Positions 15,140 to 40,800 of a DNA stretch of 64,000 bases are shown piece after piece; the first letter of the stretch is position 1; each line of letters starts with the position of its first letter. The stretch is taken from contig OZ076409.1 in assembly GCA_964187785.1 (NCBI GenBank), positions 58,964,001-59,028,000 on the forward strand, written 5' to 3'. The translations under genes were made by a program, and so were the position numbers. The notes beneath the pieces are model-generated. The model had not been told where the DNA came from. It saw only the letters and a list, made by a program, of their open reading frames with translations, and ran no database searches. The stretch is from Amphiscolops sp. MND2022. Lineage: Eukaryota.

Positions 15140-16639
15140 TGTCCCAGGCGTCCGCCTGTGATGGCAATGTCTATTCAATTTGACACGACTATAAAAAAGT
15201 GCAACCCTACACCCTTCCTCTAAACTAAACTTGCAAGCGAAACTCTTAAAATTATTCTAGAAAGTCATGTAAACCTTATAATTTACTTCATAATATGTTT
15301 TGTATTATGCAATAGCATGTAATATTATTATACTAGCGTTAATATGTAAGTTAATTGGACACCAAGGCGTACAGGTAACGGAAACGCGTTCGAATATTTT
15401 CTCGCCTGTCGCCTTGGTCCGCCAGTCCAATTAACTCGTTAGCCAATCACGGCGCATTATCTTTATTTGTTGCTGTACTATATTACTAGATTAAAGGACT
15501 GGATGGCCATATGCCGCCTGTCAAGGAAGCGCTGGTCCGCTCATGTCTATTGGACACTGAGTCCGTAACTAAATTAAAAGCGCTAGCTAGTGAATATTAT
15601 CAATTACATAATTGTTGGTGCTTAAATTTCCCATACGATGCATTATTAGTCCTCGAAGGACTTATGAACTACGAGAGACAACGTGCTATTAGTGCATTTT
15701 CATATAATTCATGCAATTCTAATGAATGTTGAAATACATGTATCCTGTTTGGTTTTGTACAAATATATCGTTGATTGTCTGTATGGACTCACGGGCTTCC
15801 CGCCATGTTAACTGTCGGAAAGGCCCTTTGATGTATATAACGTCATGATGATGTTAGTTGCTATTTATAGCATTGGCTTTATTTAGAAAGCCCTTAAGGC
15901 TATTTTTAGCTCATGACCGCTAAAATTATGAACGTCATGTAGTTTCAAGTATTTATAGCCGGGACATTTAGCCCCGGGGACAACAACTTTTGTATGATAC
16001 TACATGCTAGTTACTTACCGTTTTAGTAATCTCACACTGAATTTACAAGCTAAAAGATAATGCACTTCTTTATCTTGTAACAATCTCTTATGCCTTCCAC
16101 AAGAAAACAAAAGGCTAAAGCCAGAAAATCTAGAGAAATGGACATGATGTTTGACTTTGAAAACTTAGACGTGATGCTGGGAAATAGTAATAGTAATCCC
16201 ATAGAATGAGAATTAGCTGATGCTATAGATCAGTCGTCGGCCCACGGGGACGCTGATACAAACGTGTACCAAGGAAGTGAATATAGAGATTACCTACATG
16301 AAAATGATTTACTGAGACAAAATGAATTTAGACAGTCCTTTGAAACTTTCTCAAATGAATTCAACCTTAGATTGTCTCAAGAGATGGACTCTATGATGTC
16401 AATGATGCATAGTCAGATAAATAGGGCCATTACGGCAGCTATAGCTGAGAGAGTCGTCCCAGAAATCCAAAACACTGCTAACTCAATGTCCTCTACGGGG
16501 CACAGGGACACTGAGGCCAGTTTGTCCCCCAATAGTCAGGAAAACAGGGAAAGCGCATCTGGGACTAAAATGAAGATTGCACAGAAGGATTCACGATCTG
16601 ATGGTGATTTAAGAGATACCTCGGGTCACGATTCTCACA
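15140..16639 (+). mobile_element. Solo LTR family A copy 1 (1500 bp) containing an ORF
   Basis: TGTCCCAGGC...TCTCACA; TSD ACAGC/ACTGC (1 mismatch). Confidence 0.85.
16090..16639 (+). pseudogene. LTR-embedded ORF (probable gag N-terminus), MPSTRKQKAKARKSREMDMM...RLSQEMDSMMSMMHSQINRAI...PEIQN
   Basis: 183 codons with a single internal TGA and no stop before the LTR end; homologous in all four family A copies. Confidence 0.75.
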
Positions 16640-17244
16640 ACTGCCAAGTTAATACTTCTCGATTTCGCCATGTTCCATATTTTGCCCAAACAGGAGCTGT
16701 CCCATAGAATAAATTAATTGCATATATATCTGAAGATTTCATTTGCAAGACAACAAACACGAAGCGCCTCCGTAATTCCACTATTGAACGTTTCTGGGCA
16801 CTTTTTGTAGTTTTTGAATATTCTTAAAGTCGGAAAACTCACAGTTCAACAGCTAACTCTCCAGAAAAAGCCGATTTTTGTTCAAAAATGCTCAGAAGAG
16901 GCATTAAAATTCAAAAAACTTTTGTACAACAATTGAAAAATTTAGTTAGTATCAATAAAAACAAAGTTCGAAGACGAAACCTTTACCTCTAATGCGATTT
17001 TAAGTATATTAAATAGAGGAGTTTCAAATTCATTTTTGAAAAAAGTCTCAATAAAGAAAAAGTGCAGAAAAATTTCTTTTCTCATTTTCGACAAATTGTG
17101 ATTTTTTTTGTACATTTTTGTGTTGTTTCCTTGTTCTTTAATATGAGAAACCAAGATCCAACTACGCACTTTTTAGCTACTTATATTTACTTTTTAGCTA
17201 GCATAGATTCCTTGAAAAATTATTCAAAAAGGCCAAAGAAACTC

Positions 17245-17250
17245 TACCTC

Positions 17251-17303
<53 letters not shown>

Positions 17304-17311
17304 GCCTCTCT
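17245..17311. repeat. (TC)n microsatellite
   Basis: Directly visible. Confidence 0.95.
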
Positions 17312-17431
17312 CCAAAAAGATCAGAATTGAACTCAAAAGAACCAAGTTTTTCAATTCTCGGACAGTCTGATTTTCAGAGTTCATTTAGGATTTGGATTCA
17401 GATAGTTGGAAGAGATAATTTTATTCATTTC

Positions 17432-17970
17432 CCTTGTTGGAACTGCTTGAACTTTTTGCATGAACTTTAATGTTGCCAGCAACTTTTATTATGATTTTCT
17501 GAAACCCTTACGGAAATTTTCATGCGAAAATATTTATCTGTTGTCTTCGACTTTTATCAAGCTGCTCGAAAGATTCATCAAAGTTTTGGTGGCATTTTTA
17601 AGCATTGAAGTTTTGCAGGTTTTATTAAGAAGCAGTTTTAATTTTGAAAGCAAATACGTCGCTCTCAGTGTAACAGCCATTTCGATGCAAATTAACTTCA
17701 GTGACGTAATAAACTGCAAATTAGCGTCTTTTTAGCGTCCTATTTGAGAAGCGGTGATCACATCAGATGAGTAGTTGAGGAAACATAGTGTAAATACAAA
17801 GTGATCGCGTCGTTGGGCGATGAAGTAGTATTTAGTTTCAAATTTAATTGGAGTTGTGGAAAATGCAGAGTATTTCTTAAAAATATACCCTCGGAATTAT
17901 CACTGAATTTTCTAGGTTTTATAAACGATTACCCTGCATGCAGGCCTGCAGCATGTAAAAAGTTCCTGCA
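17432..17970. repeat. Dispersed repeat, inverted homologue of ~25460-26000
   Basis: TTTAATGTTGCCAGCAACTTTT, CCTATTTGAGAAGCGGTGATCA and TTACCCTGCATGCAGG are found reverse-complemented at 25460-26000; the end motif also occurs at ~55555. Confidence 0.8.
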
Positions 17971-18528
17971 GTCTGAACTAGGATTATCATACGTTTGTTT
18001 GATGCCAATTTTTGGGTTTTTTTACAAACCTGTGTGAATGTAACCAAATCGTGTCAAAGTTTAATTTTGGAGAAACATGGTGGAGTGACTTGGAGTAATT
18101 AGTCTGTTTTGGGGCAGACTAACAAATATGGAACAAAAATTCAACTTTGTTTGAAACAAAGAAATATTTGAAATAAATAAATATGAAACCCCTCTCATTA
18201 TGGTTTTTTGGAACGCAAATATCGAAACAATTCCAAAAACTGCGATGAAATATTGCTTTCTGCCTTCATCTTCTTGCCCAATGGAACTCACATTCTCATA
18301 TTTCACGGAAATGCTTACGGAAGACCGTCAAAGACTTGACATTTTTTATTTCTGTATGTTAATTCATCCAAGTTGATTAGAAGGTTTGAAAAACAGTGTT
18401 TTTTGTGTTTTAGTGTGAAAAATCGTGAATTTGGCTTGATTTTCGTGTTCTTAGCATGACATTTTCAGCGCGAGTTGTGCGAAAAAGTTGCGTGATTAGC
18501 TGACATGCCTGCCCAATACTCAAAGAAT

Positions 18529-19269
18529 TGTAACGACCCGCTAGCGACGCACATCTGGGAAGAGGGACAATGCCTAGTATGCTTAAACAGGAGACCGTTG
18601 TCTTACTACATCCCTAGACACTAATTTTTGTTCCCAAAATGGTCTCCAAGGGGGGCTATTCTTTCATCACAGGAGGCTCCTCTAGTTAGAGCTCCGAGGC
18701 GACGTGCCGGCACTCTCAAAGTCCGGACACGCCCCATAAGCCTGCAAAGAAACGAATCCTAGGTTCTTAACATACATTCCGGCCACCTCCTACATACTTC
18801 CGAGGTCCAAAAAAATATCTAACTGAAATACATTGTATTTGGGGAATTAGTTCTAAAATACAGATCTAGTAGATCAAACATTATTCAAATACTCTGTAAA
18901 CGGTGACAAAACACGGGGATAAGCCGCAATAACATTACAGTTTAGGGTCGGTCGTCAGTCTGGCTTCTGGTATCATTCCTCATCTTTGGGGCACAATGGT
19001 CTTATTTGCCCTTTTTTTGCCGAAACCCTGTCTTTTTCAGCTGGCACAATTCCTGATTCTCTCGCCTTCTGGGTGATGACATCTCGGACATTCACGTTCC
19101 TGGGTGGGGGTGGGGTCTTCTGATGTTGTTTTGCCTTGACTTTGCTTCTTCTACGGTTTTCTTACCTACCGGGTCGGCCATCATGAATGTGCTTGTTTGA
19201 TACCGCACATTTCGAATTTTTTATCGAAATTTTCAAAAACTTCTGCAACGTCGCTTGCCTGAAGTTACA
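18529..19269 (-). mobile_element. Solo LTR family B (741 bp), 3-bp flanking duplication AAT
   Basis: Reverse-complement homologue of the LTRs at 37804 and 42188; AAT|TGTAACG...GTTACA|AAT. Confidence 0.9.
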
Positions 19270-19461
19270 AATGATAGCGTACCGGTAGTGCGAACATTAG
19301 CAAAGCACTTGTAAACAAAATTGTTGCTGGTTTTACAAGTTATTCGTTTTCTTGATACTTTTGATAAGACTCTCACCAATATTTCTATAACGAATTTCAA
19401 GAGTTGTGTGTGAAGCAAGAATAAATAAGATCTTATCAAGGCTTTCAAGAGTAAACGGGAA

Positions 19462-20984
19462 TGTCACAGGCTACCGCCTGTGACTGCAATTACTACCAAA
19501 GTCTATTGGAAGGGGATAACACAAATACCCCTCCCGGAGTTTTGCCAATTTAGACTTATAGGACACTTAGTCCGAACAGCCACAACAAACATTGACTTTA
19601 CCATAATGGAATATGTTATAATTTAATACGCAATCTGTGTCTGTTATACTGAAAAGCTGCTGTAGTATTGTTATACAATGTAAATTTGCAGTAAATTAAT
19701 GTAAGGACAATTAGTACGTATACCGTAGTATGCAATACGGAAGGAAACAAGTTCAAATGAACTCATCCTCTAACCAAACGTACACGCATTACTAGACCTA
19801 TTGATCAATCAAATTGCAGTTTTTTGCTGTAGCTCCGCGGACTGAATGTCTGCCGCGATGGAAATAGTACGCATCTCCGCCAGCACAGTATTTGAATGAA
19901 GCTGCGTGGACCTAACGTCCACTACGGTTAATTATAGTGCTGATATGTAATCTCACATTTAATAAACATGAAACGTTGCAAACTAGTATTAGTTGTGGAA
20001 ATGAAATATTATTACATGTTATTTTATCTTGTCGGCTCAACCGACAAGTATCTCTTTGATGTACTGACGTCACTATGTCACAATTTCAAATCAGTGCTAT
20101 TTTTAGTATTTGCAACTATAAATAGTAACATGACATGCGGAATTTAGGCCGTCATCCCTCTCAGACTATAAATAGGGGGGACTAACGGTTCGAGGATCCT
20201 TTTTCGATATATCTCAATTACAATCAAGTTGCTACTGTTTCATTCTGGTTCAATTTCAACCTTCTGATTATAACTTGAAGCAGTGTTAATTTGTATCGTT
20301 ACTTCCACAATTCACTTTTGAAAAACTAACTTTCCTCCAATGCCATCTTCTAGGAAGAAAAAAAAGGCCAAAGAGAGACGCTTTAGGCAATTGAACATAA
20401 AGTCTGATGTTGAAAACGTAGATATAATATTACGAAGTTATTCGGGAGATGAAGAAAGAAATGACCAAGTGAAAGTGAATTAAATCTGGACCCAGGGTCC
20501 ATAAGGCCTCAGCAAAGTTCTAAGCTAGTTGGAGAAGACTTTAGATCATTACTAAATACAAATAGAAGAGAGAATAGTGAAATGACTATAGAGACAACTG
20601 GGATGATTAGCGAAGAAGTCTCTAATCAGGTACCTAGGAAACTTCATGAGATTAAATCAAGCCTGAATTCTCAGATTCAAGATGCAATTACAACAGCAAT
20701 AACTGAGAAAGTGCTCCCTGCAATCCAAAATACGTTAGATACGCAGGGGAGGGCTAAGTTCACCGTGGTGGACCGAGGGTCCAATGGGCTACATGAGGGC
20801 CCGACGGCGGCCATTTTCACCGCGGTGGACCGAAGGTCCAGTGGGCTACAACGGAATCCCGAAGTTGGAAAAACTAAGAAGACGTGGGAAAACCGCCCCA
20901 AAACGTGTTTTGAACAGGATAATTGTGGACAGATGTCTCGACAAAGTTCAGTAGACTCTTATAATAGTGAACAAAATTGCCACA
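19462..20984 (+). mobile_element. Solo LTR family A copy 2 (divergent subfamily, 1523 bp) containing an ORF from 20340
   Basis: GGGAA|TGTCACAGGC...GCCACA|GGGAA, a perfect 5-bp TSD; ORF MPSSRKKKKAKERR...LNSQIQDAITTAITEKVLPAIQN (frameshifted). Confidence 0.85.
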
Positions 20985-21652
20985 GGGAATAAGTAAGAAT
21001 ATGCGAGATCTTGGCAACAGTTGCCAGATATATACCACTGGTAACAACTCAACAATTGGCAGTTTAGCCTACTTTTAAGAAGAGCTATTTGGAGTTTTCT
21101 GTAGTAAAGAACGTCAATCCTTGCATTTTTGCATGCAATTGGCTAACACTTTTTAATCTTTTCTGTGGTCGTTAGGTGAACAAGAAAAAATTAGCTACTT
21201 AATTCATTTTTGGAGAACCTAGATCAAAAACTGCCAAGTAATCAAAAAGGCCAATTTTCCAATTTTTGAAGTTGCGAGCGTTTCTGCTGGCGAGCGCCTT
21301 TCGGTTACGTTCACACTTTTTCAGATTTTGCAGTTGTCTAAGTAATTCAGCGCTGAAAATGTCCAAGTGCAGAGCGGGTGTCTTTTTTTCCAAAAAAATA
21401 AATCTAGCCCATTTTTAAATAGTTACCAAGGAACATTCGGATAATTTAATTTTCCAAGAAAGCTTTTAGCTCGAACTTTTTGTTTGTTTGAGCGAACTTT
21501 CTTGTCCAAATTTCTAAATTGACCATTAAAGATGTCTTTAATGGTCAATTTAAAAGTTTGACATTTAATTTGTCAATTTAAAAATATGCTCACGCAGTTT
21601 TCATTTTGCAGGAAGCTTTCTAGCTGGTTCAAATGTTTTTATTTTTTAATAG

Positions 21653-21849
21653 GAAACCTTGTGGTCGTGGCAGTTATCATAACAAACAAGGCGATGCACA
21701 ATACTCCCAATATCTACATAGCCAGTGTGGCCATCAGTGACTTTGCTTTCCTCACCGTCTGCGTCCCCCTGAATATCTACGTCACCTTGGCCACAGATGG
21801 GTGGCAGCTTGGGTCCTTCGTGTGTGCGGGTATGCAGTACCTGATGTAT
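21653..21849 (+). CDS. Class A peptide GPCR exon (TM1 end, TM2, ECL1, TM3 start)
   Basis: ttttttaatag acceptor, gtaagt donor; GNLVVVAVIITNKAMHNTPNIYIASVAISDFAFLTVCVP...WQLGSFVCAGMQYLMY (GN, D2.50, WxLG..C motifs). Confidence 0.92.
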
Positions 21850-22167
21850 GTAAGTACCTTTTCATGTCAGCAGTCAATGGGCTACGATAATCAAAGCTAA
21901 GAATCTGCTACTGTTTTGAGCCAATCTAAAACGCCCAGTGAACACTGTCCATTTTTCTGCCCACTGCCATCAAAATGATAGATAATCACACTTTCTATTG
22001 AAGTTCAAAAACAAGCTTTTTGTGCACTCATATTTTCAGAACATCAAATTGCTTGAGTTGAGAGCTTTTGGATAACATTTTAGTACATTTAGAAATTCTG
22101 CAAAATAGACCAATGAGAACATTTTGTTTCCCGTACTTTCTTTCTCAAATAGAATGAACAAAAGATT

Positions 22168-23751
22168 TGTGAGGACTGAGATCCCCAGTGTCCCTAAGAT
22201 CAAATGCAGACCTGGAGTCTTTCTTGGCTATTTTCGTTTCCAATTAATTTGTTTGGCCATCGTTCTCTTAACTATTACCAGACGACCCGGATTCGGTGTC
22301 TCGGTGACTTGAAGACATTGAACCCATGATGTTTTGTATTTCTGGTATGACACTGTCATTGATAGAAGAATTTATAGCCCTATTGATCTGAGAATGCATC
22401 ACTGACATCAGGGAGTCCTTCTCCTGTGAAAGACGCATGTTAATCTCACTTGAGAATATTTCCATAGACTCAAGAAGTATATATCTTGCCTAGGAATTGT
22501 GTTCTCGCCACTAAAATCCCTAATAATATTCTCTTACGGCTTGGGAATGCTTGGGAAAAGGCTTCAGTGTAAGTATTACTGATTGAACCATTGATGGTAT
22601 TCGTAATTCTCTTCCAATGTGATTTGCATTTTCACTACCAAGTAATACGTCCGAATTTTCAAAGTCGGATATCATGTCCAGCTCTCCAGACCTCCTTGCT
22701 TTTGCTTTCTGTCTCCTTGTATATGGCATCAAAATTTTGTGAGAGAGTAATATTTTATTTCTCGAAAGTAACGATTGTGTACTTTCAACTATATTTATCA
22801 AAGTTGTCAAGCAGAATTGAGTCAGGGCCTTGCGTGGCTGTCTATATATACCCCAGGAAGGATGACTTCCCAAATTTAGGGCATCATGTTGCTATAACTA
22901 GACTCGCATCGACTAAAAATATAATCTTTTGATAGTATTAATGCCAATAAGTATTCTATACTCTATCAATAGCCTCGAAACCTAACGAGTATATATTGTT
23001 TACAAGGCCTTCTAGACTTCTCCAACATAACAGTAACTATAGCAACTATATACAAGAATCAAACCATTTACACGTTCATCTACATGCGCGCGCCCCAGTA
23101 CGGTAGATAGAACAAGTGTCTTACCTATGTAAAATGTTCCCATGATTTCACAGTTAAAGGGGTGAAGGGGGATTACATTTTGGCCGTATTTATAATGTAA
23201 TTTCATGGACTAAGTGTAGATTTTGACATGAAATCCATGTATAGGCAAAATCATGTATCATCATTTTTTCAAATGGACCAAAGAGGGGGGAACTCAGTTG
23301 CCTGTCTCAACTGTAATTTATTCAAGTCGCAGATGTTTTCATTCAGACTGCACTCTATTAGAGCACTATATTGTATTACTGTATCATCGCTTCAGTATTC
23401 AGAGAATAAAGCCGCAACTGGCTAATTACCATGGTCTTTTATTACATCACAGCACTAGGCCGTACTCGCCAGGCCGCGCCAGGCAAGAAAATGTTTCAAC
23501 GTGTTTCCTTTGTCTGTACGCTCAGTACGCCTTGGTGTCCAATTTTTATAATATTACCTGTACAAAATGCAACAATTCATCTTATTGTAAAGCAAAATAA
23601 CAATTGTGAATTTAATAACACAAACAAAGTATATGAGAAGTCTATGAATGGGGATTACCCATTCAGTCCAGGGGGACTGTCCCAGGCAGGGCCAGATGGA
23701 AATTGTACGACACAGAGTACCAATTACCATCGCAGGCGGCAGCCTGCGACA
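22168..23751 (-). mobile_element. Solo LTR family A copy 3 (1584 bp) containing an ORF from 22729
   Basis: Minus strand TGTCGCAGGC...CCTCACA; ORF MPYTRRQKAKARRS...RLSQEKDSLMSVMHSQINRAI; TSD degraded (AGATT/GTATT). Confidence 0.85.
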
Positions 23752-25459
23752 GTATTTACTTACACAGAGGAGGGAAATCACTCAAGGTGCATGGTTGTAT
23801 CCAAACATCTGCGGCGTCGAAGCCGAGGGAAGTGAAAAAAAGAAAAAAAATTCCAAGGTTCAAACTCCACATCTATGTCCGGATAACGGGTGCACCTAAC
23901 CAACTCAAACACCGGGAAAAAGTTAGAATACTTTTTGCAGTTGAAGTCACCACATGGAAAAGAAAGCCGCTATTTATTCAAGGTTTTTTATCGACAAATA
24001 AAACAAGTTGGAAAAGAACAAATCATTGTGAACCAATTTCATTATCGAGACTTTCCGTTTTTGCACGCAATTTTATCTGAATCACTACAAAAAAAATATT
24101 CATTATAAAATTACAGCTTCAAATAATGATTTTCAAAAAAAATGTCAGCAGCTCAGAACTTTAACTGAGTTTGGATTTCTGCTTCCATTTGTAACCATAT
24201 TTAGTTCAAAAGATTGATATTTATCAGGTTTGTTCATATGGAAGACTGATGAACCTGATTACTGTGACAAGTAAGTGAAATCGAAATGTAGCTATTTTGT
24301 ACACAAATTTTGAACGAAGCTCGGTTTGCTCTGCTGAAGCTCAAACGCAACTATTTTCTGAGGTCAAAACGTTTATCAAACTTAAATATCTTCATTATAA
24401 TTTTAACACAGTTTTGAACAAATGTCTCTCAAAAAACTATTGAGTCCAAGGGTTGCATTTTACAATCAATTTTCTTTTGCATTACTCATACTATGCTTTT
24501 AAATGAACAACCCTAGTCTTTTCAAAATACTACAGTGTGGTTTTCAAGAAAATTAAGAAAAACCCTCAGCGCCAAACAAAAATAAACAAAAGGAAACCTT
24601 TTGGTCTCATAAACGACTTTTCGTTCTCAAAAAAGACCCAAGAGTCAAAAATCACAAGGGGATCTTCATAGGATATAACAACAAACGAAAATGACTTATT
24701 GCCTGAGGAAAGGTTCAAGGAGGACAACGTTCGGTCTCATACAGCGTTTTATATCAAGCAAAATGGAAAGCTTTCTAAAAAAGCCTCTTCGGTCGCTAAC
24801 AAAACAAAGTCAACACTGAGATACATCACTTTCCGCTGATGACACCTCAGTATTTAACTTAGACTCACAAACCATCGTCAGTTCCAAAAACTGGCAACAG
24901 AAACAAATTATCAAATCAGGTTTTTATATCCACAAAGATGCTTACTGGTGTTTTAAAATTCTTTTGAAACTTTTCTTATTAATTATGAAATTATAACTTT
25001 TGTGGCCGCTATAATACAATTTAGGGACACAACGGGCATCTCAAATAAATTTGAGAATCATTTTTAACGACTTCACTAACGCAATCATGTTCGAATAACA
25101 GAACGGGAAGGTCTCAAGGCGGTGCCCTGTTTTCGGCTCAAAAGGAGCAGAGCTTTCAAAATATGCTTAATGCATTTCTGAATAAAATCTCTTAAATATA
25201 CCGAAAATTACCCAATGGGTACCCTGCGTGCTCAGACAACGCTTTTCTAAAAAAACCAAATTGACTGAAAATATTCTGGAGAAAAACGCATAGTAAAAAA
25301 AGTATTTGGGCCTGAAAACACTTTACACTTTTTTCTATCCAAAAATATCAAACAAACCAGTGCGAGGTCTGTGGTCTTACAAAAGTTTGTATCCGTAAAA
25401 GTCGAGCACTTTTTGTTACAAAACTGCCCGTAGAATATAATAAAAAGTTTAATTTAATT

Positions 25460-26000
25460 GCCCTGGAAATTTTTACATGCAGCAGACCTGCATGCAGGGT
25501 AATTTTTTTTATAAAACCTAGAAAATTCAGAGAGTTTCGGATAGTAAATCATGAACAATTACACTGCATTTTCCAATCCGGCTTATAAATTTGGAAATAA
25601 ATTCCACTACATTACCGACACAATCACTTTGTATTCACACTTTGTTTTCTCAACTCCCATATGATTTGATCACCGCTTCTCAAATAGGACGCTGAAGATG
25701 ACGCTAGTTTGTTGTTTACTTTGTGAATGAAGTTAATCTGCATTAAAATAGGCGGCAAATTTGCTGCTTTGTCTCAACTGCTTTTGAAATTAGAACTGAT
25801 GCATAATGGAACCTGCGAAACTCCGAGGCTTATAATCGCCTTCAAAAGGTTGATGAATCTTTCAAGCAGCTTGATAAAAGATGAATACAACAGAGAAATA
25901 TTTTCGCATGAAACTTTTCCTAAGTGTTTTAGAAAATCCTAACAAAAGTTGCTGGCAACATTAAAGTACATGCAAAAAGTTCAAGCAGATTCAACAAGGA
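25460..26000. repeat. Inverted copy of the 17432-17970 repeat
   Basis: See 17432-17970. Confidence 0.8.
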
Positions 26001-26360
26001 TGGGTATTCAATCGATAATGTCAAAAATTTAATAGCAAAAATTGTTCTGCTCTTCTTGTTCTCTCCCTAGAGAACCAACTTGGCACATTTATTTCCTCGA
26101 TTTTTTCACGTTTTGATTTCATTTTCTCTGTAAAACTAATTGTAAATGTTGCAAATTCAAAACAAAATCATTGTAAAAAGATTTCGATTGTCGATAACAT
26201 ATGAACGGAGTTTCAACTGAAATTTTAAAGCAGGTCAGGAGGTTTTTGCTTTTTCATGTTTTTCAAAACCACGTGATAAGAAAAAAGTCGAGAAAAGATT
26301 AATAGAAAAAAAAATATTATTAATCACAAAAATTTGAACAAAAGTCTATGTAGACGTACA

Positions 26361-26900
26361 AAAAAACCAGGAACGACCAAAGTTGGCGCTATATCTTAGG
26401 CTCAAAAAGCGCAAAAATTTAAAAAATTGTAAAAAGGGCGACACTTTGGGCTTTTTGGAGCTCCAATTTGTTGCAAAACATGAAAAGGGAAAATCATGAA
26501 TTGAAGGGGGATCAGTTGGAGACACCAAAAATCTTCGGTTGAAAAGATCAAAAATCAAGCTTTTTGAAACGTCAAACTGCCGAAAAATGTAAAAAGGGTC
26601 TCCTTTGGGATTTTTCAACAGCTATACAGTTGGAAGTTATCGAAACAATTGAAAGCGGGACCCTTTAGTGCAATCCAAAAATTTTCAAAAAAAGTCTCAT
26701 ACTGCCGAAAAAAGTGGAAACCGCCAAAATGAAAAAAGGCAAAGGGGGATCTTTGGTTTTTTTTCGTGGTTCTGGACGTCGGTTTTGTTTTTTAAGGCGA
26801 CGAGCGAAGCGAGATGCCTTATTGTTTGCGTCGGATTTTTTTTCGCCAAAAAGTGACATCCCTCTGCATTTGTAAAAGTTTCGGCTATTTTTCTCCAAGC
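26361..26900 (-). mobile_element. Second, diverged Helentron-like element, truncated next to the Gypsy fragment
   Basis: Shares CAAAGTYGGCG.TATATCT.AGGCTCAAAAAGCGCAAA and the internal repeats with 10237-10836. Confidence 0.55.
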
Positions 26901-26915
26901 CTATTTCTCCAAGCT

Positions 26916-27951
26916 AATACAGGTTTAGCGTGCCTCTTATTCGCTTTACGATCGACCGCGGCGGCCAAAAAGAATAGCTCCTTCGAACAAATATTTAATA
27001 TTTGGTCGCAAGCCAAATACCGTAAAGGAAATAATAACCGACATACCAAAACACTGTTTACAAAATGACCAAACTCTGAAGCTCTCTCCAGAAGAATTTC
27101 CAAAGGACGATGTCTCCACGATCTTCCTACGAGATCGAACCCGAAATACAAAACTTGAAGGTCATTTCAAGAAAAAGCCAGGGGCTATCGTTGCGGAATC
27201 GAGCCACACCATCACAAGGGAGACAAACAGAGGACAAGTGCTTTCAAAGCGAGACCTTGCCAAAAACGAAAGCGCGTCGCACAGCATAAAAACTAGCACA
27301 AAAAGAGGAAACAGCCATTCATTGGAGAGAAAAGTAGCACCACTAAAAGACGCAGAAGAAAGGAGCGAAATGGAGTTAGACAAATCCTTAAATTTCTTTG
27401 CAGCAAAAGATTACAAAACACGCCAAAACGAAACCGCTTTCCTAGAAGACAGATAAAACCGAGAAAATCCTTGGCGGGCCTACCAGACAATGACCCACCA
27501 AGAAATTGATGAATGGGTTAACAATTAGAAATCATCAGAGTCTGAACCTGAAAGAAAAATTACCATCATTAAATTTGAAACTGAACATAAACTCATACAG
27601 TATATTTAATAATAGTGTCTGTAAACATTCTCCTTTACAATCTTTTGGGCGGTAGCTTTAACCCCACCCAAACATTTCTGTTGGTATTATTTCTACTGTA
27701 ATGTTAATTACAGGCAAATAGTACGAACTTTATTCCGTAGTGAGGCAGGTGTGGCCGAAGCCATTGGCCAAGGTAAAAAACAAAATAGAACGATGCTAAA
27801 ATTTAATTGATAAACATAGTTAAACGTTTGATAAAGTACCTGTTTCATACGTCGTCCAAACAACACAAATGAAAAACAATGCAGCAAGTTGCATACTACA
27901 GTCGATTCGATGAATTCAATTTTTCTTAGCTCAGTGTTTTTGACTACAACA
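26916..27951 (+). mobile_element. Gypsy integrase C-terminus plus LTR end, direct repeat of 32138-33174
   Basis: About 1 kb of high-identity direct repeat ending CTACAACA, immediately followed by PBS-like TGGCGCTGCGAGC. Confidence 0.85.
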
Positions 27952-28476
27952 TGGCGCTGCGAGCTTTTGATCCTGACGTTGGAAAAACCAAAAATAGGGA
28001 TCAGCAGTAGCTGGTTTGGCGCTGTATTGGAATGACCCTCACCAAAATCCAAGCATCGAACGGAAGAAATGGTGCGATTTGTTCGCTGTGGCGATGACTG
28101 CTATATATTCAATCTCTATCGCAGAGGTACTGAGGACTGTGACAAATGAGGCTGATCGAAATAAAACCTTATTGAATAATGTTGATCATCCAGTAGCAGA
28201 GCGTAAGTGAGTCAGTGTACTTTATTGATCTCTGGGGGTTGCGGCACGGAAGTTCTTTACCGACAATTATCCAACAGTCAAAATCTCCGAAACAACACCA
28301 CAAGTATTACTGGATAATTGCAAGAGTACATTCGATACAAAACAGAATAGGACATTAGATCGTTTCAGACTAATGTCCAGAAAATAAATGCCGTCAGAGA
28401 CATTGGAACTGTTCTGGCACTCATTGAACGGAAAGGCCTCAGAATGCGATCTTGGGGCTCAAACTGACAGCCTCGT

Positions 28477-28801
28477 CATTACGATACACATGCCGGTACG
28501 AACTAGCAGGATCCTGCTAGTTCGATTTTTGTCCAATCAGAGCGCGAATATTTTTTTTGGAAGTTTTACACTTTTCTCACATTACGCGCATTGATAGGCC
28601 GTTACACTCGTTGATTTTGCTACGTACGTTGACTAGTTACACTAGTTGCCTACGCCCCGTCACTGGCGTAATGTGCCCTCTTTGTAATTGCAACCCGCAA
28701 TTGCAACATCCAAATCATCTTTCGGGGATGCTTTCGGTAGTGTACGTAGTTTCTCTTGTACAGTCAAATTGTTCATATTGTGGATGAAAATATCGTGTAC
28801 G
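28477..28801. mobile_element. CATTACG-family MITE remnant plus inverted duplication inserted in gag, flanked by GT duplication
   Basis: gag reads CTC GT|insert|GTA CAC GAT (L V H D); the insert starts CATTACGATACACATGCCG. Confidence 0.7.
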
Positions 28802-28940
28802 GTACACGATATTTTCATCCACAATATGAACAATTTGACTGTACAAGAGAAACTACGTACACTACCGAAAGCATCCCCGAAAGATGATTTGGATGTTGCA
28901 ATTGCGGGTTGCAATTACAAAGAGGGCACATTACGCCAGT
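28662..28940. repeat. Perfect palindrome, 139-bp arms with a 1-nt spacer
   Basis: Centre GTGTAC-G-GTACAC at 28801; identical ORFs on both strands in the ORF track. Confidence 0.95.
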
Positions 28941-31900
28941 AATCGTACGGAGAAACCAAAGTTTCGATAAAGAGGGAACGAAAAAGAAGGACTGTTTACG
29001 TTCTGGAAAAGAAGAAAGTTTTCAATAGAGCACCTGAAAGTATGCCCCGCAAAAGGCAAGAAATTCAACAAATGTAGAGTTTTGGGTCACTCTGGTCGTG
29101 TGTGCCGAAAACAGTAAAAACCACAAACTTCGCAGAAACAACCACCGTGACGAGTGAATTGGGTTGATGAGGAAAAAGACAATAATTACGAACAAGAACA
29201 AGAAAAACAATACGTTTTTGGCATCGATGGTGGTGGATCATCACCATAAATGATGAAATTTAAAATTAATGGAAAGAAAATTTCCTAATGATAGATTCGG
29301 GATCACCAGTGAAAATATTAAATCGAGAAGACTACAAAAAATATTGAAGTACCAAGTCTTGTTTGCACCCGCCTACCAAAGGACGAAAAATACGTAGATT
29401 ATAGCAAGAAGACAGTAAATATACTGGGATACAACTATTGTGAATTGTAGGTTGGCGGCAAATACAAAAAAGCGAGAATCTTGGTGGCACGACCGGGAGC
29501 AAAGTCAAATGTCGGCAGAGATTGGTTGAACTATTTACAATATCGCATCCATCCAAAAAGTAAAAAAAGTAGGATTCCCATTTCATCAATTTGTATAACT
29601 AAAACATTGCCACTAGGTCCATATGTAAACGAAATGCAAGCGGAATTTCCCGACCTGTTTGTTAGAAAGGGTAGAATAAAGTACTATTCCATGAAGGAAT
29701 GGTAATGAAACAACAGAAGTGCCGCCGCGTACCGTTCCAACTACAAGAGTCCGTAAAAAAGGGAAATAAATCAGCTATTGCAAGAAGGCCACATTGTTAA
29801 AGTACAAGACATCAAAGTGCATGTCTTCTTACAGCCCACAGTGGTTATGATTACCGTCGAGAAAGATCGGAGCGTCAAAATAGCCCTGGTTGCAAGGGAA
29901 CTGATAAAAAATGTTGTTAAAGATAAATACCCGATGCCGAGTCTTGACAATCTAATGGACATGATTGCAAAAACATGTGGAATAAGGATCAGGCAAGACC
30001 TTTTTCACCTCACTGGATTTGACGTATGCATACGGACCAGTAGAACTTAGCGAAGCCACGTCACCACGTCAAATAACCAGGGGCGTGCGACAGGAATATA
30101 CATATTCATAACAGGGTTCTACGGTCTCACAACCTTGGCTACGGAATTTCAAAGAATATTGGAATTAATATTGGCACGTATTAATCACAAATACATTTGC
30201 TTTTATAGATGATATTTATCAATTCTCACACATGGAATAGAAGATGAACACATCAAGAAAGTAAAGGATATATTGGAAAGACTCGACGAAGCAATCATAA
30301 TTTTGAAACTAGAAAAGTGCGCCTTCGCGGCGGAAAATATTGAGTTGGTCGGATATAAACTGTCACAGCAAGGCGTAGCGCGAATCAATAGTAAAGTACA
30401 AGGAATCCCTGAAAGACTGGAACCAACAATTTTAAAACATTAAAACAACTCTGATCGTTCCTGGCGCCGTTAACCAATTTGACAAATTCATCCCCAACTT
30501 AGCACAGCTGTGCTTTCCGTTCCGAAATTTGATAAAGAAGGATTACGAAAAGAATTGGGGTGGAGAACAGAAAAAGGAATTCAAAACAGTAAACGAAGAA
30601 ATTGAAAAACCAACCATGCTGAATCTCTTCAAACAACAATGCACTTTGAGGATCATTTGCGATGCAAGCAAATCTGGGCTGGGAGCTGTATTACAGCAAA
30701 AATAAAACAAAGGATGGAAACCCATTTCTTCCGCATCACGCTTTTTGACTGAATTAGAATCAAAATATTCCATAAATGAACTTGAATTACTTGCTATAGT
30801 ATCGTCAGCTACGTGTACGGAGTCCCATTCAAAATAACATCAGACCATAAAGCCTTAGCAACAGTGTTAAAGGGATAAGAAGCGAATCAAACATTTTCTA
30901 GCAGACTCACACGGTGGGTAGATCGCCTATTACCCTTTGACTTTGAGGTAATACACGGACCAAGTAGAACATTGGGCACAGCTAATTTTTTGTCTCGAAA
31001 GCCATCACCGATAAACGAAAGTTCCGTAAAATCAAGTACATTATGGGATGAATGGTTCACTGTAATTGTTGTTTCAGAATTAACAAAATCACTTCCTACT
31101 AATCAGACGTCAATCAGCGGCGGCCGTCAGCCAATGAAAAACGAGAGCGATGCGAATGAGAATTTAGCCAACGAAGGTGTGAACGAACCTGACGATACGC
31201 AATCAATAGAGCAAACAGTTAAAGACGCACTCAGCGAACAAACTGCCATGTCAAACAAGCGCGATTGAAGCGAGGCAAGCAAACTGCATGAAATTTCAAT
31301 TAAACCACCGGTCAAGAGACCTCCAACGATCGCATTATTAGACAAAACCTCGACAATTCCCCTCAAATCCAGCATGCAACGGATTGGAGAAAACATCCTG
31401 GCAGGGACGTACGAACACGGCCCACTACTACACTATTACAATCAATTATCGACATTCTAAAACATCACAACCAACAGTCGATAAACAAACTCCCGAAAGT
31501 CTGGCCACAGAGGTTCAACGAATTACGAATGGACGAACACGATTTCATTTCAGTGATGAGAAAATAGGCATCCCAGAAAAGCTCAGAAAACCCATTTTCA
31601 GAAGTTTTCACTGAGGTCATTCAGGACGTGACTCAATGCTACAAGCAGTAGCAGACATTTGGTGGCCACGGATTCACCGTGATATCGTCTCACTGGCACA
31701 GTCCTGCCCAATATGTCGACAAGCAGGTAAAAATTTAAAAACTTTAAAACTATCGGAAGTTGGAAACCTGCCCGCGGTGGATGCTCATAACGACGAATTA
31801 ATAATAGACTTCGGTGGACCTATTCAACTAGCACAAAAAATTAAGAATTACCTACTACTGTCCATAGATCCTAAAACCAATTGGCCGAACGCAGCGTTTG

Positions 31901-34648
31901 TAGCAAAACCTACCGTTGAACGAATCGTAATTTTTCTAAACGCACACATCGCACAATTTGCTGTTCCAAAATGAATTCGCATCGACTCCGCGGCGAAGTG
32001 TTTAAACAATTTTGCCAAGAACATTTCATTCATGATATCGAATTTTTGACCACCGCGGGAATAGCGAAAAAGAACGGTTAATTAGAACCATCAATGAGAG
32101 ATTAAGGTCCGATAAAACAATTATCACCGAAAAAGGAAATACAGGTTTAGCGCGCCTCTTATTCGCTTTACAACCGACCGCGGCGGCCAATAAGAATAGC
32201 CCCTTCGAACAAATATTTGGTCGCAAGCCAAATACCGTAAAGGAAATAATAACCGACATACCAAAACACTGTTTAGAAAATGACCAAACTCTGGAGCTCT
32301 TTCCAGAGAAATTTCCAAAGGACGATGACTCCACGATCTTCCTACGAGGTCGAACCCGAAATACAAAACTTGAAGTCCAATTCAAGAAAAAGCCAGGGGC
32401 TATCGTTGCCGAATCGAGCCACACCATCACAAGGGAGACAAACAGAGGACGACAAGTGCTATCAAAACGAGACCTTGCCAAAAATAAAAGCGCGTCGCAC
32501 AGCCCAAAAACTAGCACAAAAATAGGAAACAGCCATTCATTGGAGAGAAAAGTAGCAGCACTAAAAGACGCAGAAGAAAGGAGCGAAATGGAGTTAGACA
32601 AACCACTAAATTTCTTTGCAGCAAAAGATTACAAAACACGCATCCCACCAAAACGAAACCGCTTTCCTAGAAAACAGATAAAACCGAGAAAATCCTTGGC
32701 GGGCCTACCAGACAAGGACCCATCAAGAAATTGATGAATGGGTTAACAATTAGAAATCATCAGATTCTGAAACTGAAAGAAAAATTACCATCATTAAATC
32801 TGAAACTGAACATAAACTCATACAGTATTTTTAATAATAGTGTCTGTAAACATTCTCCTTTACAATCTTTTGGGCGGTAGCTTTAACCCCACCCAAACAT
32901 TTCTGTTGGTATTATTTCTACTGTAATCTTAATTACAATTAAATAGTACGAACTTTATCCCGTATTGAGGCAGGTGTGGCCGAGGCCATTGGCCAAGGTC
33001 AAAAACAAAAAAGAACGATGCTAACATTTAATTGATAAACATTGTGAAACATTTATTAAAGTACCTGTTTATACGTCGTCGAAACGACACAAATGAAAAA
33101 CATTTCAGTAAGTTGCCTTTACATACTACAGTCGATTCGATCAATTCAATAGCTCAGTGTTTTTGACTACAAGAATGCCTTTTAGGCTCCCTAAACGTTT
33201 TTTTTGCGAACCGAAAAGTTCACAAAACTCGTTCATTTTGTTGATTATAGATTTTTTCTTGGTGTATCTTCTTCCTTTTCCTTCCGCACGCGTTAAATTA
33301 TTGCTAATATTGAAACAAAATTCAAAACTCAGTAGCCGGTTTTATGAGTTATTTTTATCAAAAAAAATGGTCTCAAAAAGTGCTTTGAATTTTACTAAAA
33401 TTAATTGGATAAACGTTCAGTTTTTAAAATGAGTGGGTAAACTTTCAGTTTTAAAATGTGTGGGACTTGGCGAAGGAAAAAGAACTAGTTTTCCAATTAG
33501 GAAAAAAAGGACTTAAATCAACATTTTATGTCGAGTCGACACTTTTAGGCAAATTAGATTTTTATTTTAATTGGATAGAGTTCTTACATAACGCTTGAAC
33601 TATTCAGCTAATTAACAAGTTGACTAAGCAAATTAAATTCATCTTTTTGAATCGTAATTTGCAGTTTTTTCTCAGTTTGAAGAGTCTTAAGTCAAGGAAC
33701 TTTTCAATGCACAACTGACCAACTTTAATCAGAAACTAGATTGAAGTCTCTTTCCAAACGTTTGTTCTAAAATAAAAATTTCTCGATCAAAATTGTGGTT
33801 ACATGTCAGAATAACTAAAGTACCATTCCGTTAATGTTTTCGATAAGTTTTTGCTATTTCGAAACGCTTCGAGCTTTGCGTATTTCCTAATTTCGGTACT
33901 TTCCTAATTGTTTGCAAGAAAGTTTACTGCAAAAATATGGGCGGAAAATACCGATTCATTGAATCTCGAACACTCTCAGAAAGTCTTTTGAAGTCAACTT
34001 GTTGAATCAGATTCATGACGCCTTTTTTCTATAAAACAAAGTTTGGTTCCATTTACATACTCTCTTTTTTAGACGTGAAACGACAAATTCCAGTTCACCG
34101 TGTCTGTATTTCATTGGTGTATAAGAGCATCACGTTCACCAAAAAAATTTAAACGATGGTCTTTTTCATGCGTTTTTATCCATGATCATCCATTGCATGA
34201 TGGCGTTTCATCAATAATCATTCATGAATCATGGATATCTTACTATGATTATGGAATGATTCTCGCCATTGCGAACCCATGAATCAGGGAAAAATCATGG
34301 CCTGTAAATTTGGGAGAATTATGTAAGTTAGCACTTTGTAATTTTAAGTTAGAAAAATCTAAAATAAATTTTTTGAATCTGTGTATCTCATCTAGTTAGC
34401 TATTTCATTGCTAATCTCTGTTGTTACTTCATTGCTAATCTACTGTGCTTCCTCATGAATAGATAAACAAACGTGTCACTCAAAGATTAGAAAGAGCTTG
34501 TCTCAATAATAGACATAAACAAAAAACTGCAATGACGTGATCGTACGATATCTGAAAACCAAAACCGCTGACTTCTCAACGAGAAACTTTTCAGCTAATT
34601 GCATTAAGGTTTGATCAACAGGTCTCATTCGAAAAATTCCTCAAACCC

Positions 34649-35963
34649 TGTAAGGACCTAAGGTCCACCGTGTTTTTCAGGTCGAAAGCAGACCTACAAT
34701 CCTTTTTTTGTAATTTTAGTTCTAAACCCAGTTTTTCCTTTGTTATTCTCCTGATTGTTCGATGACGAACCGGACTCAGTGTCCCTGTTCCCTGAAGATA
34801 ATGAACTTGCCAATTTTTGAATCTCAGGTTACACTCTTCCAGCTATCGCAGAGCTTATGGCCCTGTTGATCTGCGAGCGCATCATGGACATCATTAAGTC
34901 CATTTCCTGGGACAATCTAAAATTGATTTTGTTTGTGTAAGTTTCCTTTGACTCAATCAATCTATCTTGCTTAGGGAGTGCATTTTCGCGGTTGAAACCT
35001 CCAAACTCATCCTCTTGAGAGGAATTCTCCTAGGATGTGAATTGGGCTCAGCGTCATATTGATTAGCTGATCCGTAAATTATATAGCTAGTTCTCTTTCA
35101 ATGGGATTAATAAGTTCATTCCCAATCATCACATCTGTTTTGTCGAAATCAGACATCTTGTCCATCCCTCTAGATATACTAGCTTTCGCCTTTTGTCTTC
35201 TTGTTGCTTGTTGAAGGCAGAAGAAATCGTTACAAGGGAAGAATTCAATTTATACTGTCTGGCAAATCAAAGTTAACGTAACAACGTTTTCGTTTATTAA
35301 TGTATATGAATGGATGACTATATATACAAAACAATACTTATATGTCACATCAATGAACCAATTTCATATCCAGCATTGATCATTGTGTTTTCCAAACGTT
35401 GGTGTGGGATTTCATATGGATGAAATTTTCATTTTTTTTACATTTGCATGATTAGTTGATGCAAGCATAAGCATCAAATTGGAATTAATCAGTTTTATTA
35501 GGTTCAATATTAGACTGAACCTATATTTCAATCTAATACGGGACTAGCTGTCCGCTCGCCTTCGGCGTACAATTCAACAGCATGCATGACCGTACGATGC
35601 CTTTAATTAATAGCACTAAATGAATAGAGCACTGAGCTAAATGGAAGCACCTGATTGGTCAAAATGATTTTTGGACAGCGTGTCCAGGGCGACAGACGAA
35701 CACGTTTCCTCAGCCTGTACGCCTTCGTGTGCAATTATCAGTAATGTAGTAATACAAAGACAATACATCTCTATAAACGCTTTACATGTTCAATTATATA
35801 TTTCTAGTTTGACAAAAGCAGTTTTGTTTGAAGTAAGTTGGTCTCTCCACCCTGCTCGATTGACTGGGAATTCGTAAATTTTATCACAGTGGAAGCGTCC
35901 CTGGTAGTGCACTAGGTCGGCTTGCGTCGATGGTGTAAACGTTGCCATCACATGCCTGGCACA
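34649..35963 (-). mobile_element. Solo LTR family A copy 4 (1315 bp) with a decayed ORF
   Basis: AACCC|TGTAAGG...GGCACA|AACCC, a perfect 5-bp TSD; minus strand encodes RLSQEMDLMMSMMRSQINRAISSAIAGRV.PEIQ. Confidence 0.85.
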
Positions 35964-37803: not shown

Positions 37804-40800
37804 TGTAACGTCAGGCAAAAGACATTGCAGAAGTTTTTGAAAATTTCGATCAAAAATTCGAAATGTGCGACATCAAACAAGCACATTCAAGATGGCCGAC
37901 CCAGCAGGTACGAAAACCGTAGAGGAAGCAAAATAAAGGCAAAACACCACCAGAAGATCCCACCCCACCACCCAGGAACGAGAATGTCCGAGATGTCATC
38001 ACCCAGAAGGCGTGAGAATCAGGAATTCTGCCACCTGACAGCAAAAAGACAGGGTTTTGGCAGAAAAGTGCCAAATGAGACCATTGTGCCCCGAAGATGA
38101 GGAATGATGCCAGAGGCAGGAAGCCGATGATCGCCACCGAAATGTAACTGTATACTTTATTGGGGCCTATCCCCACCTGTTTTGACTGTTTATAGCGTAT
38201 TTGGATAATGTTTGACCTACTAGGTCCTCATTTTAGTCCTTATTCACTCATATAATGTATTTCAGTTAGACACCTTTTTGGACCTCGGAAGTATGTAGGA
38301 GATAGCAGGAACGCATTAGGAACCTAGGATACGTTTTTACAGGCTTGTGGGGCGTGTCCGGACTTTGAGAGTGCCGGCACGTCGCTTCGGAGCTCTAACT
38401 AGAGAAGCCTCCTTAGACGTTAGAAAAGTCCCCCTTGGAGACCATTTTGGGATCAAAAACTAGTGTCTAGGTATGTAAGAAGACAACGGTCTCCTGTTTG
38501 AGCATCCTAGGCATTGTCCCTCTTCCTAGATGTGCGTCGCTAGCCGGTCGTTACATCTGGAATAGTTTTTATGGCGACCACAGAGGGATATTTTTCATAT
38601 TGCGTACAGGTAGGAGCAACTTCTGCTTTCCGGCCCCGAAGGGTCCAGATCTAGGAAAACGTTTTGGGAGGGTCCTAGATTATTTTTATAGCATTTTTCT
38701 GGCCCTCTGGGCTTTGTACTAGTGTTATTCCTGCGTTTTCCCCGTGTTTCTGAGGTCTACTTAGAGAAATTAACCGTTCTTAACAGTGTACCCCCTTTTT
38801 CCTCACTAAAACCTAATAAAAAAGCTTATCCGGCCTATCCGGAACGTGTTTTAAAGGGTTTTCTAGCTTATTTTCAGCTAATTTGCAATGTATGGGGACA
38901 GAGAGGACGAGCGCCGAAGGTTCCCACCAGCTGTGATGACGTGGTGACGTCCTACACAACCATTCCTCCCACGCCCCTGTGATTGCAGTACATCACGTCA
39001 GACGGGTGAAATCGTCTTTTTTCTTAATTTAACGGCCCAAAAAGAGTATTCCCAGGCCTACCACCATTATAACTAACTGAGAAAAATACCCATAGGGTAT
39101 TCCGATCAGTTGTTAAAAAATTTGAGCTCAAAAACCTCGAAAATAACGTTAGTTATAGCTCAATTACCGAAATTTTCAATTTTGAAAATAAATATTTCAT
39201 CAAACAGAGTAAGGCCAGTGGGAATACTAAAAAAACGTTCCAACAGACCCCCTGGGTCAGGAACAAAAAACTTTGCAGGGCCATTTTTCCAAAAATAGCG
39301 AAAAATTAAGCAATTTCTGTTAAAAAATCGTCAAATTTGGCCATTTTGACCCAACTTGACGAGGGCTAAGCCTTGGACACTAGCTCCCAAGCTTCTGAAT
39401 CAGCCCAAAAAACTTTTCCCCCAACTTGGTAGCACGAAACACTACTACCAAGTTGTTTTTTAAGGCCCCCCAATAGAAATTGAAACTTTAATAACTTGTT
39501 TCTTTTGATATACATAGATCTGAGCAGAGGACCCCATAGACCTGAGCGATATAACACCAAAAATAATAATTGAACGAACCCCAACCCCTTAAAATAAGTT
39601 GTCACACTCTCCCACAGTACTATTGGAACAATCCCAAACGCCCAAGAACCGATAAATAAAAATTTCTTGGTGAAAACACGTTATTTCAGTATTGTTCCGA
39701 GAGTGTAAAAAGTGCAACTTGAAAAATTTTTGATAGACCCTATTTGGAACCTACCAGGTTTCGCTTGCTTATTTTCTGTTAGTATATACCGTAACGTTAC
39801 AAACGCAGAAAACCGCGAGTGATTCCAACCAGTGGTTGTCGAGAAATAGCCGAAAACGCGTTATTTTTGCGACATTTTGGGAACCATATAGTAGTGCTTC
39901 CAGCACAAGCCGAAATCTCTCCTAGTAGGAGCAGCCTCAAACGGATTGCACCATTGTGTAGACCATAAAAAGTTACGTTAGTGGTGTAATTTTCGTAGCG
40001 CTAGCACTACTAGTGATTGAGAAATCTTAGCCGCAGTTTTGCTCAAAAATCGTGTGAAAATGTCGAAAAATTCGAATTTTAGTTGAGCATTGTGCAATAC
40101 CTCGCAGGTATCCCAACACTAAAATTCTTGCATTTTTGTGCACACGGCACTGGATCACGACGATTTGTGCAATTTGAGCAGCCGGCTACTAGCCAAAGCT
40201 GAGAAATTGACATTTTTGTGATTTTTGACCCGAAAAAGTGGTACCTCTGGTACATCAAGGTTTTGTCACTTCATATCGCCAGATGTTGATCAAGGCACCT
40301 CGCCGCTCTGTTTTTCTGTTACGTAGGCAAAAGTTACGCTCGCATGCAAAATTTCAGGTGGCTGAGACGCCTCGAAGGCGAATTTGACCACTTTTTGTGA
40401 ATTCCACGACATAGTCAATTTTTCAGTGAACATTGTTAAGTGGCCGTGACACCCACAGGTTCAATTTTGACCCAATCGGAGTATCATTCCCCACGATTCA
40501 GCCACTGTATTAGACGGTGTGAAGTTTTCAGATCGCTAGCAGCGCTAGAAGTGATTTTCACCTTCCCCGGAGGTGCATGTTGACAAGAAAATTGTTGATT
40601 TTGGACATTTTTGCAAAAAATCACATAATTTTTCTCAGACTACGTGCCAGTGAGGGCCAAGACGACCCAATTAGCATACCGAGCGCCCTCAGGACGTCTT
40701 CTTGAATCACTTTGATTAGTGCTAGGCTGACCCTAAGATGTCGGGTCTCTGAGAAAACCGGTCTGCGAGACATAGAGGTGAAAAACCGAAAATGGAAATT

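Follow-up and report, generated by a model that had tools for sequence, protein, structure and literature searches.

A gag gene that starts inside a long terminal repeat (LTR) has been described for Ty1, in which the cited passages give a 53-nt leader (PMC3592414) and place the primer site within the GAG open reading frame (ORF), at RNA nt 94–104 (PMC4974528). We have followed up a preliminary description, made from the letters alone, of a 64,000-nt stretch of DNA from Amphiscolops sp. MND2022 (assembly GCA_964187785.1, contig OZ076409.1, positions 58,964,001 to 59,028,000 of the forward strand; hereafter the window), in which four TG..CA repeat units carry protein-coding sequence in their last part. 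With little doubt these units are decayed solo LTRs of a clade, likely of the Ty3/Gypsy type, in which gag begins in the LTR and reads through the LTR end and a predicted primer site into capsid. The clade is an architectural variant of a known element type and is well supported as such, the window copies being dead remnants. LTRs are usually treated as regulatory, whereas this clade keeps 22–43% of the LTR as gag, and codons appear to overlay both integrase ends, the primer site and the purine tract.

Ty1 resembles this clade in having its gag start in the LTR-derived leader and its primer site within GAG (PMC4974528). The extent differs, as about 13 codons precede the primer site in the Ty1 text cited, which agrees with the short stretch that the preliminary description had allowed Ty1, against 114–223 codons here, including the whole predicted helix domain. 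The frameshift in Ty1 is +1 according to the same passages (PMC4974528), whereas pol lies in the −1 frame in this clade. In common with Ty3/Gypsy elements and with PNMA2, Arc and PEG10 are the TG..CA LTRs, a purine tract, a predicted primer site, the two-lobe capsid and CCHC knuckles, and as in Ty3/Gypsy the protease follows gag and RNase H precedes integrase. Unlike Ty3/Gypsy, gag makes up between one and two fifths of the LTR, the end of an internal ORF lies in the unique 3′ region (U3), and in one relative, the metagenome contig L002, ~5.9 kb of extra 3′ sequence carries long ORFs. An ORF in U3 is also present as nef in human immunodeficiency virus. The sag gene of mouse mammary tumour virus, likewise an ORF in U3 in the part of the source cited (PMC9412291), resembles this clade in placing coding sequence inside the LTR, here through an internal ORF reaching U3 by way of the purine tract; it differs in that only 25–30 codons lie in U3 here and that the large LTR ORF, situated at the unique 5′ (U5) end of the LTR, belongs to gag. 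Rice Retrosat2/RIRE3 share with the clade long LTRs and fast-evolving extra coding sequence before the gag-pol core, their ORF0 being a separate ORF upstream of gag-pol that the cited description places neither in the LTR nor in frame with gag (PMC3485330). Exact-phrase searches of the open-access literature, which leave Repbase and GyDB uncovered, returned no report of an element with more than 100 gag codons in its LTR or with both LTR ends coding, and the passages of PMC2238898, PMC10974842 and PMC9040795 yielded nothing of relevance.

The gag frame across the LTR end

All four units (Table 1) have TG..CA termini, and their flanking 5-mers differ at 1, 0, 2 and 0 positions in units 1–4, respectively; the chance of a perfect match is 0.0013, of a match with at most one mismatch 0.019 and with at most two 0.12. 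The coordinates, strands and TGT...ACA termini of the preliminary description were all correct, and its two perfect, one mismatched and one degraded 5-bp duplication correspond to these counts. Because TGG directly follows none of the four units and no internal gag sequence adjoins any of them in the window, the units are regarded as solo LTRs. The exon of a rhodopsin-type receptor around which they lie marks the host as an animal. The coding part, which had been placed in the last ~550–650 bp and estimated as about a third of the LTR, measures 550, 645, 562 and ~565 nt in units 1–4, or 35–43% of the unit. Every unit ends on the same H/Y codon followed by a single A, though in unit 4 this requires a frameshift close to the end; the common cut had been recognised in copies 1, 3 and 4, and unit 2, which had been left out, shares it. 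Unit 1 is ~85% identical to the N-terminus of full-length Gags and unit 2 ~70% identical to Gags of 587–588 aa. The gag-frame ORFs are broken in all four units, and in unit 1 the reading on to 16707 that had been ascribed to this copy is not reached from the gag ATG because of the stop at codon 40.

The fate of the frame beyond the LTR was read from proteins. With unit 1 as the query (X at its stop), 207 longer matches and 860 of similar length (100–321 aa) were obtained, those listed all coming from ENA assemblies. In 117 of the best 120 long matches the frame passes residue 183 as H/Y|MVTG, corresponding to CA|TGG, and continues into capsid and nucleocapsid, most forming a protein of 560–570 aa; the continuation through CA|TGG into gag that had been proposed as a check is thus observed. 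Among the best 120 short matches, 99 diverge directly after residue 183, 13 continue into gag and 8 are unanchored. The next residue in 97 of the 99 diverging proteins is T, R, I, S, N, K or M, those of A-starting codons (background 43%), as an LTR that ends one base into codon 184 would give. In the unit-2 family (587–595 aa), 68 of 76 long matches continue past the junction and, in 95 cluster members, 48 continue, 34 diverge (31 with a residue of an A-starting codon) and 13 are unanchored. Y, D, H or N stands directly before MVTG in 223 of 229 proteins, and A, V, D or E directly after it in 264 of 269, restrictions that are expected from a fixed junction nACA|TGGTGACAGGAG. A single open frame is kept across the junction in 78 of the 81 proteins of 562 aa.

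Full and truncated proteins on equal-sized contigs are 96–100% identical in 14 of the 16 pairs scored (18 tried) and, in a second set, in all 11 pairs scored (12 tried), against medians of 66–84%. Such near-identity is the expected mark of the 5′ and 3′ LTRs of one insertion, the shared contig being taken from size only, and suggests that two-LTR elements exist. None of the outcomes that the preliminary description had named as contrary to it occurred: two-LTR elements are indicated, the frame does not stop at the predicted primer site, and the ratio of nonsynonymous to synonymous substitution rates (dN/dS) is not close to 1 among units 1, 3 and 4.

This ratio points to purifying selection on the LTR-borne ORF. 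For the coding part of units 1, 3 and 4 the corresponding ratio of uncorrected differences (pN/pS) is ~0.40 (95% range 0.30–0.54) and Jukes–Cantor (JC) dN/dS is 0.18–0.20, a rough figure because synonymous sites are near saturation. Differences are highest at third codon positions, and upstream of the coding region the units align barely above shuffles. Between units 1 and 2, dN/dS is 0.85 in a DNA-guided alignment and pN/pS 0.68 over 68 codons in a protein-guided one, the divergence being too great for a clean value. Across 78 full-length proteins of 562 aa, mean pairwise identity is 78% in the LTR part and 97% in capsid.

The Gag protein of 560–595 aa consists of the LTR-encoded N-terminus, a capsid fold and two CCHC knuckles. 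The model of the 562-aa Gag contains one long helix at residues 72–135 (64 residues, predicted local distance difference test score, pLDDT, ~90) and a two-lobe helical domain at ~267–426. The top 18 rows in VIA are all retroelement capsids, the best being PNMA2 (Z 9.8, root-mean-square deviation 9.9, 150 residues aligned), with dArc1 at Z 9.7. The best Pfam match is DUF1759 in 36 of 56 aligned proteins, zf-CCHC being found in 13 of the 56; the DUF1759/Retrotrans_gag signal of the protein is weak. Whole Gag has Gag-like neighbours in Atlas at 0.92–0.94, of families that are not consistent, and residues 1–183 alone have none above 0.76 there and no family match. VIA matches the N-terminal helix only to generic coiled coils (Z ~6), which does not imply a new fold. 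A complex prediction with two copies of helix 64–142 scored 0.02 and is used neither for nor against any reading.

Pre-junction segments of ten representatives are 114–223 aa long and have a basic start, with 5–8 K/R in the first 20 residues, those of different subfamilies being only partly homologous. The junction is present on deep branches of a capsid tree, which was used for this purpose only as it contained mis-cut rows (P0410, P0401, P0421). LTR-borne gag looks clade-wide, distant families other than L002 being placed by the junction motif only. An in-frame tandem duplication of the LTR-end/primer junction is carried by 3 of 29 representatives (P0406, P0427 and P0507) and by L002 (at 9961 and 10003), and it is our speculation that such duplications could act as a ratchet shifting the boundary along gag. 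In protein P0640 a unit-2-type Gag runs into protease, and P0004 joins a unit-1-type LTR peptide to the pol of the clade, likely as the product of an internal deletion.

Table 1. Positions in the window of the solo LTRs, their coding parts and a host exon
Feature	Position	Strand	Remarks
Solo LTR 1	15140..16639	+	1500 bp; TGT..ACA; duplication with 1 mismatch; no TGG after; 562-aa-Gag subfamily
gag codons 1–183 + first base of codon 184 (unit 1)	16090..16639	+	stop at codon 40
U3-end frame, unit 1	15142..15228	+	conserved SQxxACDGNxY...LP; one internal stop; putative C-terminal tail of internal ORF
Solo LTR 2	19462..20984	+	1523 bp; perfect 5-bp duplication; 588-aa-Gag subfamily
gag N-terminal part, unit 2	20340..20984	+	~215 codons; frameshift near start
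U3-end frame, unit 2	19464..19553	+	putative internal-ORF tail
Solo LTR 3	22168..23751	-	1584 bp; TGT..ACA; duplication with 2 mismatches
gag N-terminal part, unit 3	22168..22729	-	187 codons + one base; 5 in-frame stops
U3-end frame, unit 3	23663..23749	-	putative internal-ORF tail
Solo LTR 4	34649..35963	-	1315 bp; perfect 5-bp duplication
gag N-terminal part, unit 4	34649..35213	-	ATG lost; frameshifts and stops
U3-end frame, unit 4	35884..35961	-	putative internal-ORF tail
Host exon, rhodopsin-type G-protein-coupled receptor	21652..21849	+	Pfam 7tm_1, E 4e-16; between units 2 and 3, outside element

Structure of a relative and the proposed replication cycle

DNA of a relative, L002, came from a search with alignment A3, in which 596 metagenome stretches yielded two loci, and viral and genome contigs none; protein P0013 as the sole query matched nothing in metagenome or viral contigs, and the L002 pol nothing in viral contigs. 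The 11.8-kb contig reads, in order, RNase H and integrase (1–2295), ~5.9 kb of extra sequence, a purine tract, an LTR of 1792 bp (8173–9964) whose start resembles the window units, gag and protease. Such a permuted order points to a tandem, to a circle with one LTR or to an assembly that has been collapsed. From the gag ATG at 9577, 129 codons and one base lie inside the LTR, CA|TGGTGACAGGAG being in frame, and the 541-aa Gag ends at a UUUAAAC heptamer (11193), the protease-bearing ORF then following in the −1 frame. A purine tract precedes the TG, and a conserved 12-mer beginning TGG follows the CA as a predicted primer site; searches for Rfam families and tRNAs gave no match. This predicted site lies in the gag frame, consistent with the earlier proposal of a primer site inside coding sequence. 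From the junction onward the L002 Gag shares 41% identity with P0013. Its pol, which shares 51% with the corresponding part of P0004, has RT_RNaseH, H2C2, rve and weak p58_C matches and matches to Ty3 and foamy-virus integrase.

The opposite end of the LTR also appears to be coding, which the preliminary description had missed. The first 26–30 codons (~90 nt) of all four units are kept in one frame, with a summed score of 248 against at most 9 in the other five frames and, without the terminal 11 bases, of 186 against −61 and −108. Different codons are used at 50 of 78 identical residues, and the stops are in register. In L002 a low-complexity ORF of 244 codons (7518–8252), for which no Pfam match was found, runs across the purine tract and, in the same frame, stops after 26 codons of U3; it contains short motifs that we take to resemble SUMO-binding and nuclear-localisation signals. 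Together with gag at the other end, this frame would make the LTR coding at both ends.

Other features of U3 and of the extra L002 sequence were also seen. Units 1, 3 and 4 have in common a 15-nt motif ~210–250 nt from the LTR 5′ end, in a U3 that is otherwise diverged, which is a possible cis signal. CACGTG-rich palindromic 28-mers are repeated in L002 at 8399–8922 (U3) and at 2304–2427, close behind the stop codon of pol. The region L002 2296–7517 contains four long antisense frames (236, 284, 236 and 284 aa), of which one has a CxxC...H...H motif. Their Pfam matches did not rise above noise, the two tested against PDB had no match, and one model was poor (pLDDT 45); they possibly belong to a nested element or to an accessory gene that is spliced.

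It is directly observed that the LTR carries the coding frame, that the boundary falls one base into the junction ATG, that the frame runs on into capsid and knuckles, and that pol is in the −1 frame in relatives; around these observations the following cycle is proposed. Transcription would start after a TATA-like box 110–260 nt upstream of the ATG, and translation from the LTR ATG would give a Gag of 540–595 aa with the basic N-terminus, the 64-residue helix, capsid, two CCHC knuckles and linkers that are disordered; slippage by −1, at either AAAAAAC or UUUAAAC, would then yield Gag-Pol. A tRNA would prime at the TGG inside codon 184, in which case all of the gag sequence within the LTR has to be copied into strong-stop DNA. 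At a predicted length of at least 550–650 nt plus leader, against ~93 nt for Ty1 in the passages cited, the strong-stop DNA that reverse transcriptase (RT) would need is several times longer than that of Ty1. As the 5′ part of gag lies inside the LTR it would be duplicated at each integration, and LTR–LTR recombination would leave it fused to a random flank. The internal ORF would run through the purine tract into U3, so that both integrase-recognition ends are also codons.

Several observations weigh against this interpretation. Complete two-LTR DNA of the subfamilies represented in the window was not seen, and that paired proteins share a contig is judged solely from equal contig sizes; the protein counts come from the best 120 of 207 long and the best 120 of 860 short matches. 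L002 has a single LTR in permuted order, with an LTR peptide that is barely or not homologous to that of the window, and its LTR ends were placed from the purine tract, the termini and the primer-like site, a second junction-like motif lying 42 nt downstream. RT was not seen, the L002 contig gap covering its position. Foldseek gave no match at E up to 0.001, the best being the PNMA2 capsid at 1.9e-3, and Pfam capsid matches of the 562-aa Gags fall below the cut-off. Finally, AATAAA occurs 30–85 nt before the ATG in units 3 and 4 and in L002, and is absent in units 1 and 2. Where present it suggests that the gag part corresponds to U5, the borders between U3, R (the terminally repeated segment) and U5 requiring RNA data according to the text cited (PMC3601003).

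Alternative readings and the fate of LTR copies

Elements of the Ty1/Copia type are defined by integrase upstream of RT/RNase H, Ty1 itself having integrase before RT, and this assignment was rejected as RNase H precedes integrase in the relatives L002 and P0004, the order being read there and not in the window. Ty3/Gypsy is favoured over both Copia and BEL/Pao by the position of integrase behind RNase H, by gag being an ORF of its own and by the presence of two knuckles. That the units are BEL/Pao LTRs is very improbable, notwithstanding the 5-bp duplications and the predominance among Pfam matches of DUF1759, which we take to be a BEL-associated family. BEL/Pao elements have a single gag-pol ORF and a three-knuckle Gag, whereas here Gag stops as a separate ORF, pol is in the −1 frame and there are two CCHC knuckles; the pol domains and the Ty3 and foamy-virus integrase matches listed above, with PNMA2 and Arc as best folds, also speak against it. 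There is next to no chance that the units are short DNA elements with terminal inverted repeats, or LTRs with a stand-alone accessory gene unrelated to gag. The TGT..ACA ends, the absence of an internal region adjoining the units and an N-terminal part without a family match would fit either, but the inverted similarity between unit ends amounts to 3 bases only, and both are ruled out by the continuation of the frame into Gag in 117 of the best 120 long relatives and by the anatomy of L002. Somewhat easier to entertain, though still unlikely, is the production of two Gag forms, one of them long and begun at the LTR ATG, the other a short capsid–nucleocapsid form begun at the ATG of the CA|TGG junction, with the LTR part as an optional leader. 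The junction Met is nearly invariant, an ATG is likewise present at the junction (27951) of another Gypsy family of the window, and LTR segments of distant subfamilies, at 114–223 aa, are scarcely homologous. Conservation of this Met is, however, uninformative on initiation because the CA and TGG signals force it, and nearly all 562-aa proteins, as counted above, retain the single frame across the junction.

The preferred reading, a gag that begins in the LTR, leaves the question of what the separated LTR copies do. The preliminary description had seen in them a dominant-negative copy-number control or a source of new genes. In this form, solo and 3′ LTRs would be expressed as cassettes, and the truncated Gag N-terminus that they encode would brake particle assembly trans-dominantly or serve as raw material for host fusion genes, a reading that we regard as improbable. 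The same low expectation applies to its extension, in which the LTR is a portable module coding at both ends, hundreds of intact copies express a 114–223-codon basic helical Gag domain that restrains assembly or seeds fusion genes, and junction duplications serve as the ratchet. A precedent is provided by Ty1 p22/p18, described in the passages cited as a truncated Gag, the C-terminal half made from an internal transcript, which restricts Ty1 in copy-number control (PMC4599808). Like p22, the LTR peptide is a shortened Gag within the coding capacity of the element itself; it is the N-terminal third, ending at residue 183 without capsid (~256–426), whereas p22 is the C-terminal half in that source and carries the capsid domain. 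Also in favour are the many open frames (the 860 short matches, in clusters of 82–94 members), the confident prediction of the 64-residue helix (pLDDT ~90) and in-frame fusions to other ORFs, such as P0012 (913 aa), in which the LTR peptide is joined to another element's gag-like ORF; moreover, selection at the level of the element on a 3′-LTR product is indistinguishable from selection on Gag. On the other side, none of the four copies in the window is intact, there may be a polyadenylation signal ahead of the ATG, and private substitutions do not avoid fixed columns. In 94 gap-free solo/3′-type peptides, shared variation avoids 89 of 183 columns, while private substitutions number 86 in the 89 fixed columns and 92 in the 94 variable ones (1.03 and 1.04 per 100). 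Flank-derived tails look random, their median length being 17.5 residues and that of random read-through 14. Equal private-substitution rates and random-like tails fit a pattern of selection while the element replicates and drift once it has inserted. The LTR peptide is thus most likely conserved for its role within Gag during replication, orphan copies decaying neutrally, and with broken copies, neutral-looking private mutations and no capsid half the earlier proposal is not supported. A few selected copies could be hidden in the bulk.

Each insertion or solo LTR leaves an open frame that is called as a gene, as the 860 short matches illustrate, which implies that hundreds of apparent orphan genes in genomes of this kind are LTR remnants. 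The clade also offers a natural setting in which to ask if N-terminal fragments of Gag restrict the element that encodes them or are taken into service by the host, to which the bulk data answer mostly not.

Other elements in the window

Two LTRs of 752 bp, 99.2% identical, surround 3.6 kb at 37804–42939 with no open frame above ~115 codons, a purine tract before the second LTR, a primer-like site ~15 nt after the first and no clear target duplication; this looks like a young non-autonomous element. A copy related (85%) to these LTRs lies on the other strand at 18529–~19270. A degraded Gypsy-like element at 26916–33172, the one whose ATG straddles the LTR/primer junction at 27951, has before it a second copy (1050 bp, 92%) of its integrase tail and LTR, likely a tandem remnant. 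Positions 1–3400 comprise a degraded pol-like region with a weak match to the pol of the clade at 1818–2108. Towards the other end, ~58700–64000 is GC-richer (45–47%) and contains several minus-strand frames of 115–218 aa, with a Pfam match in none of the five scanned.

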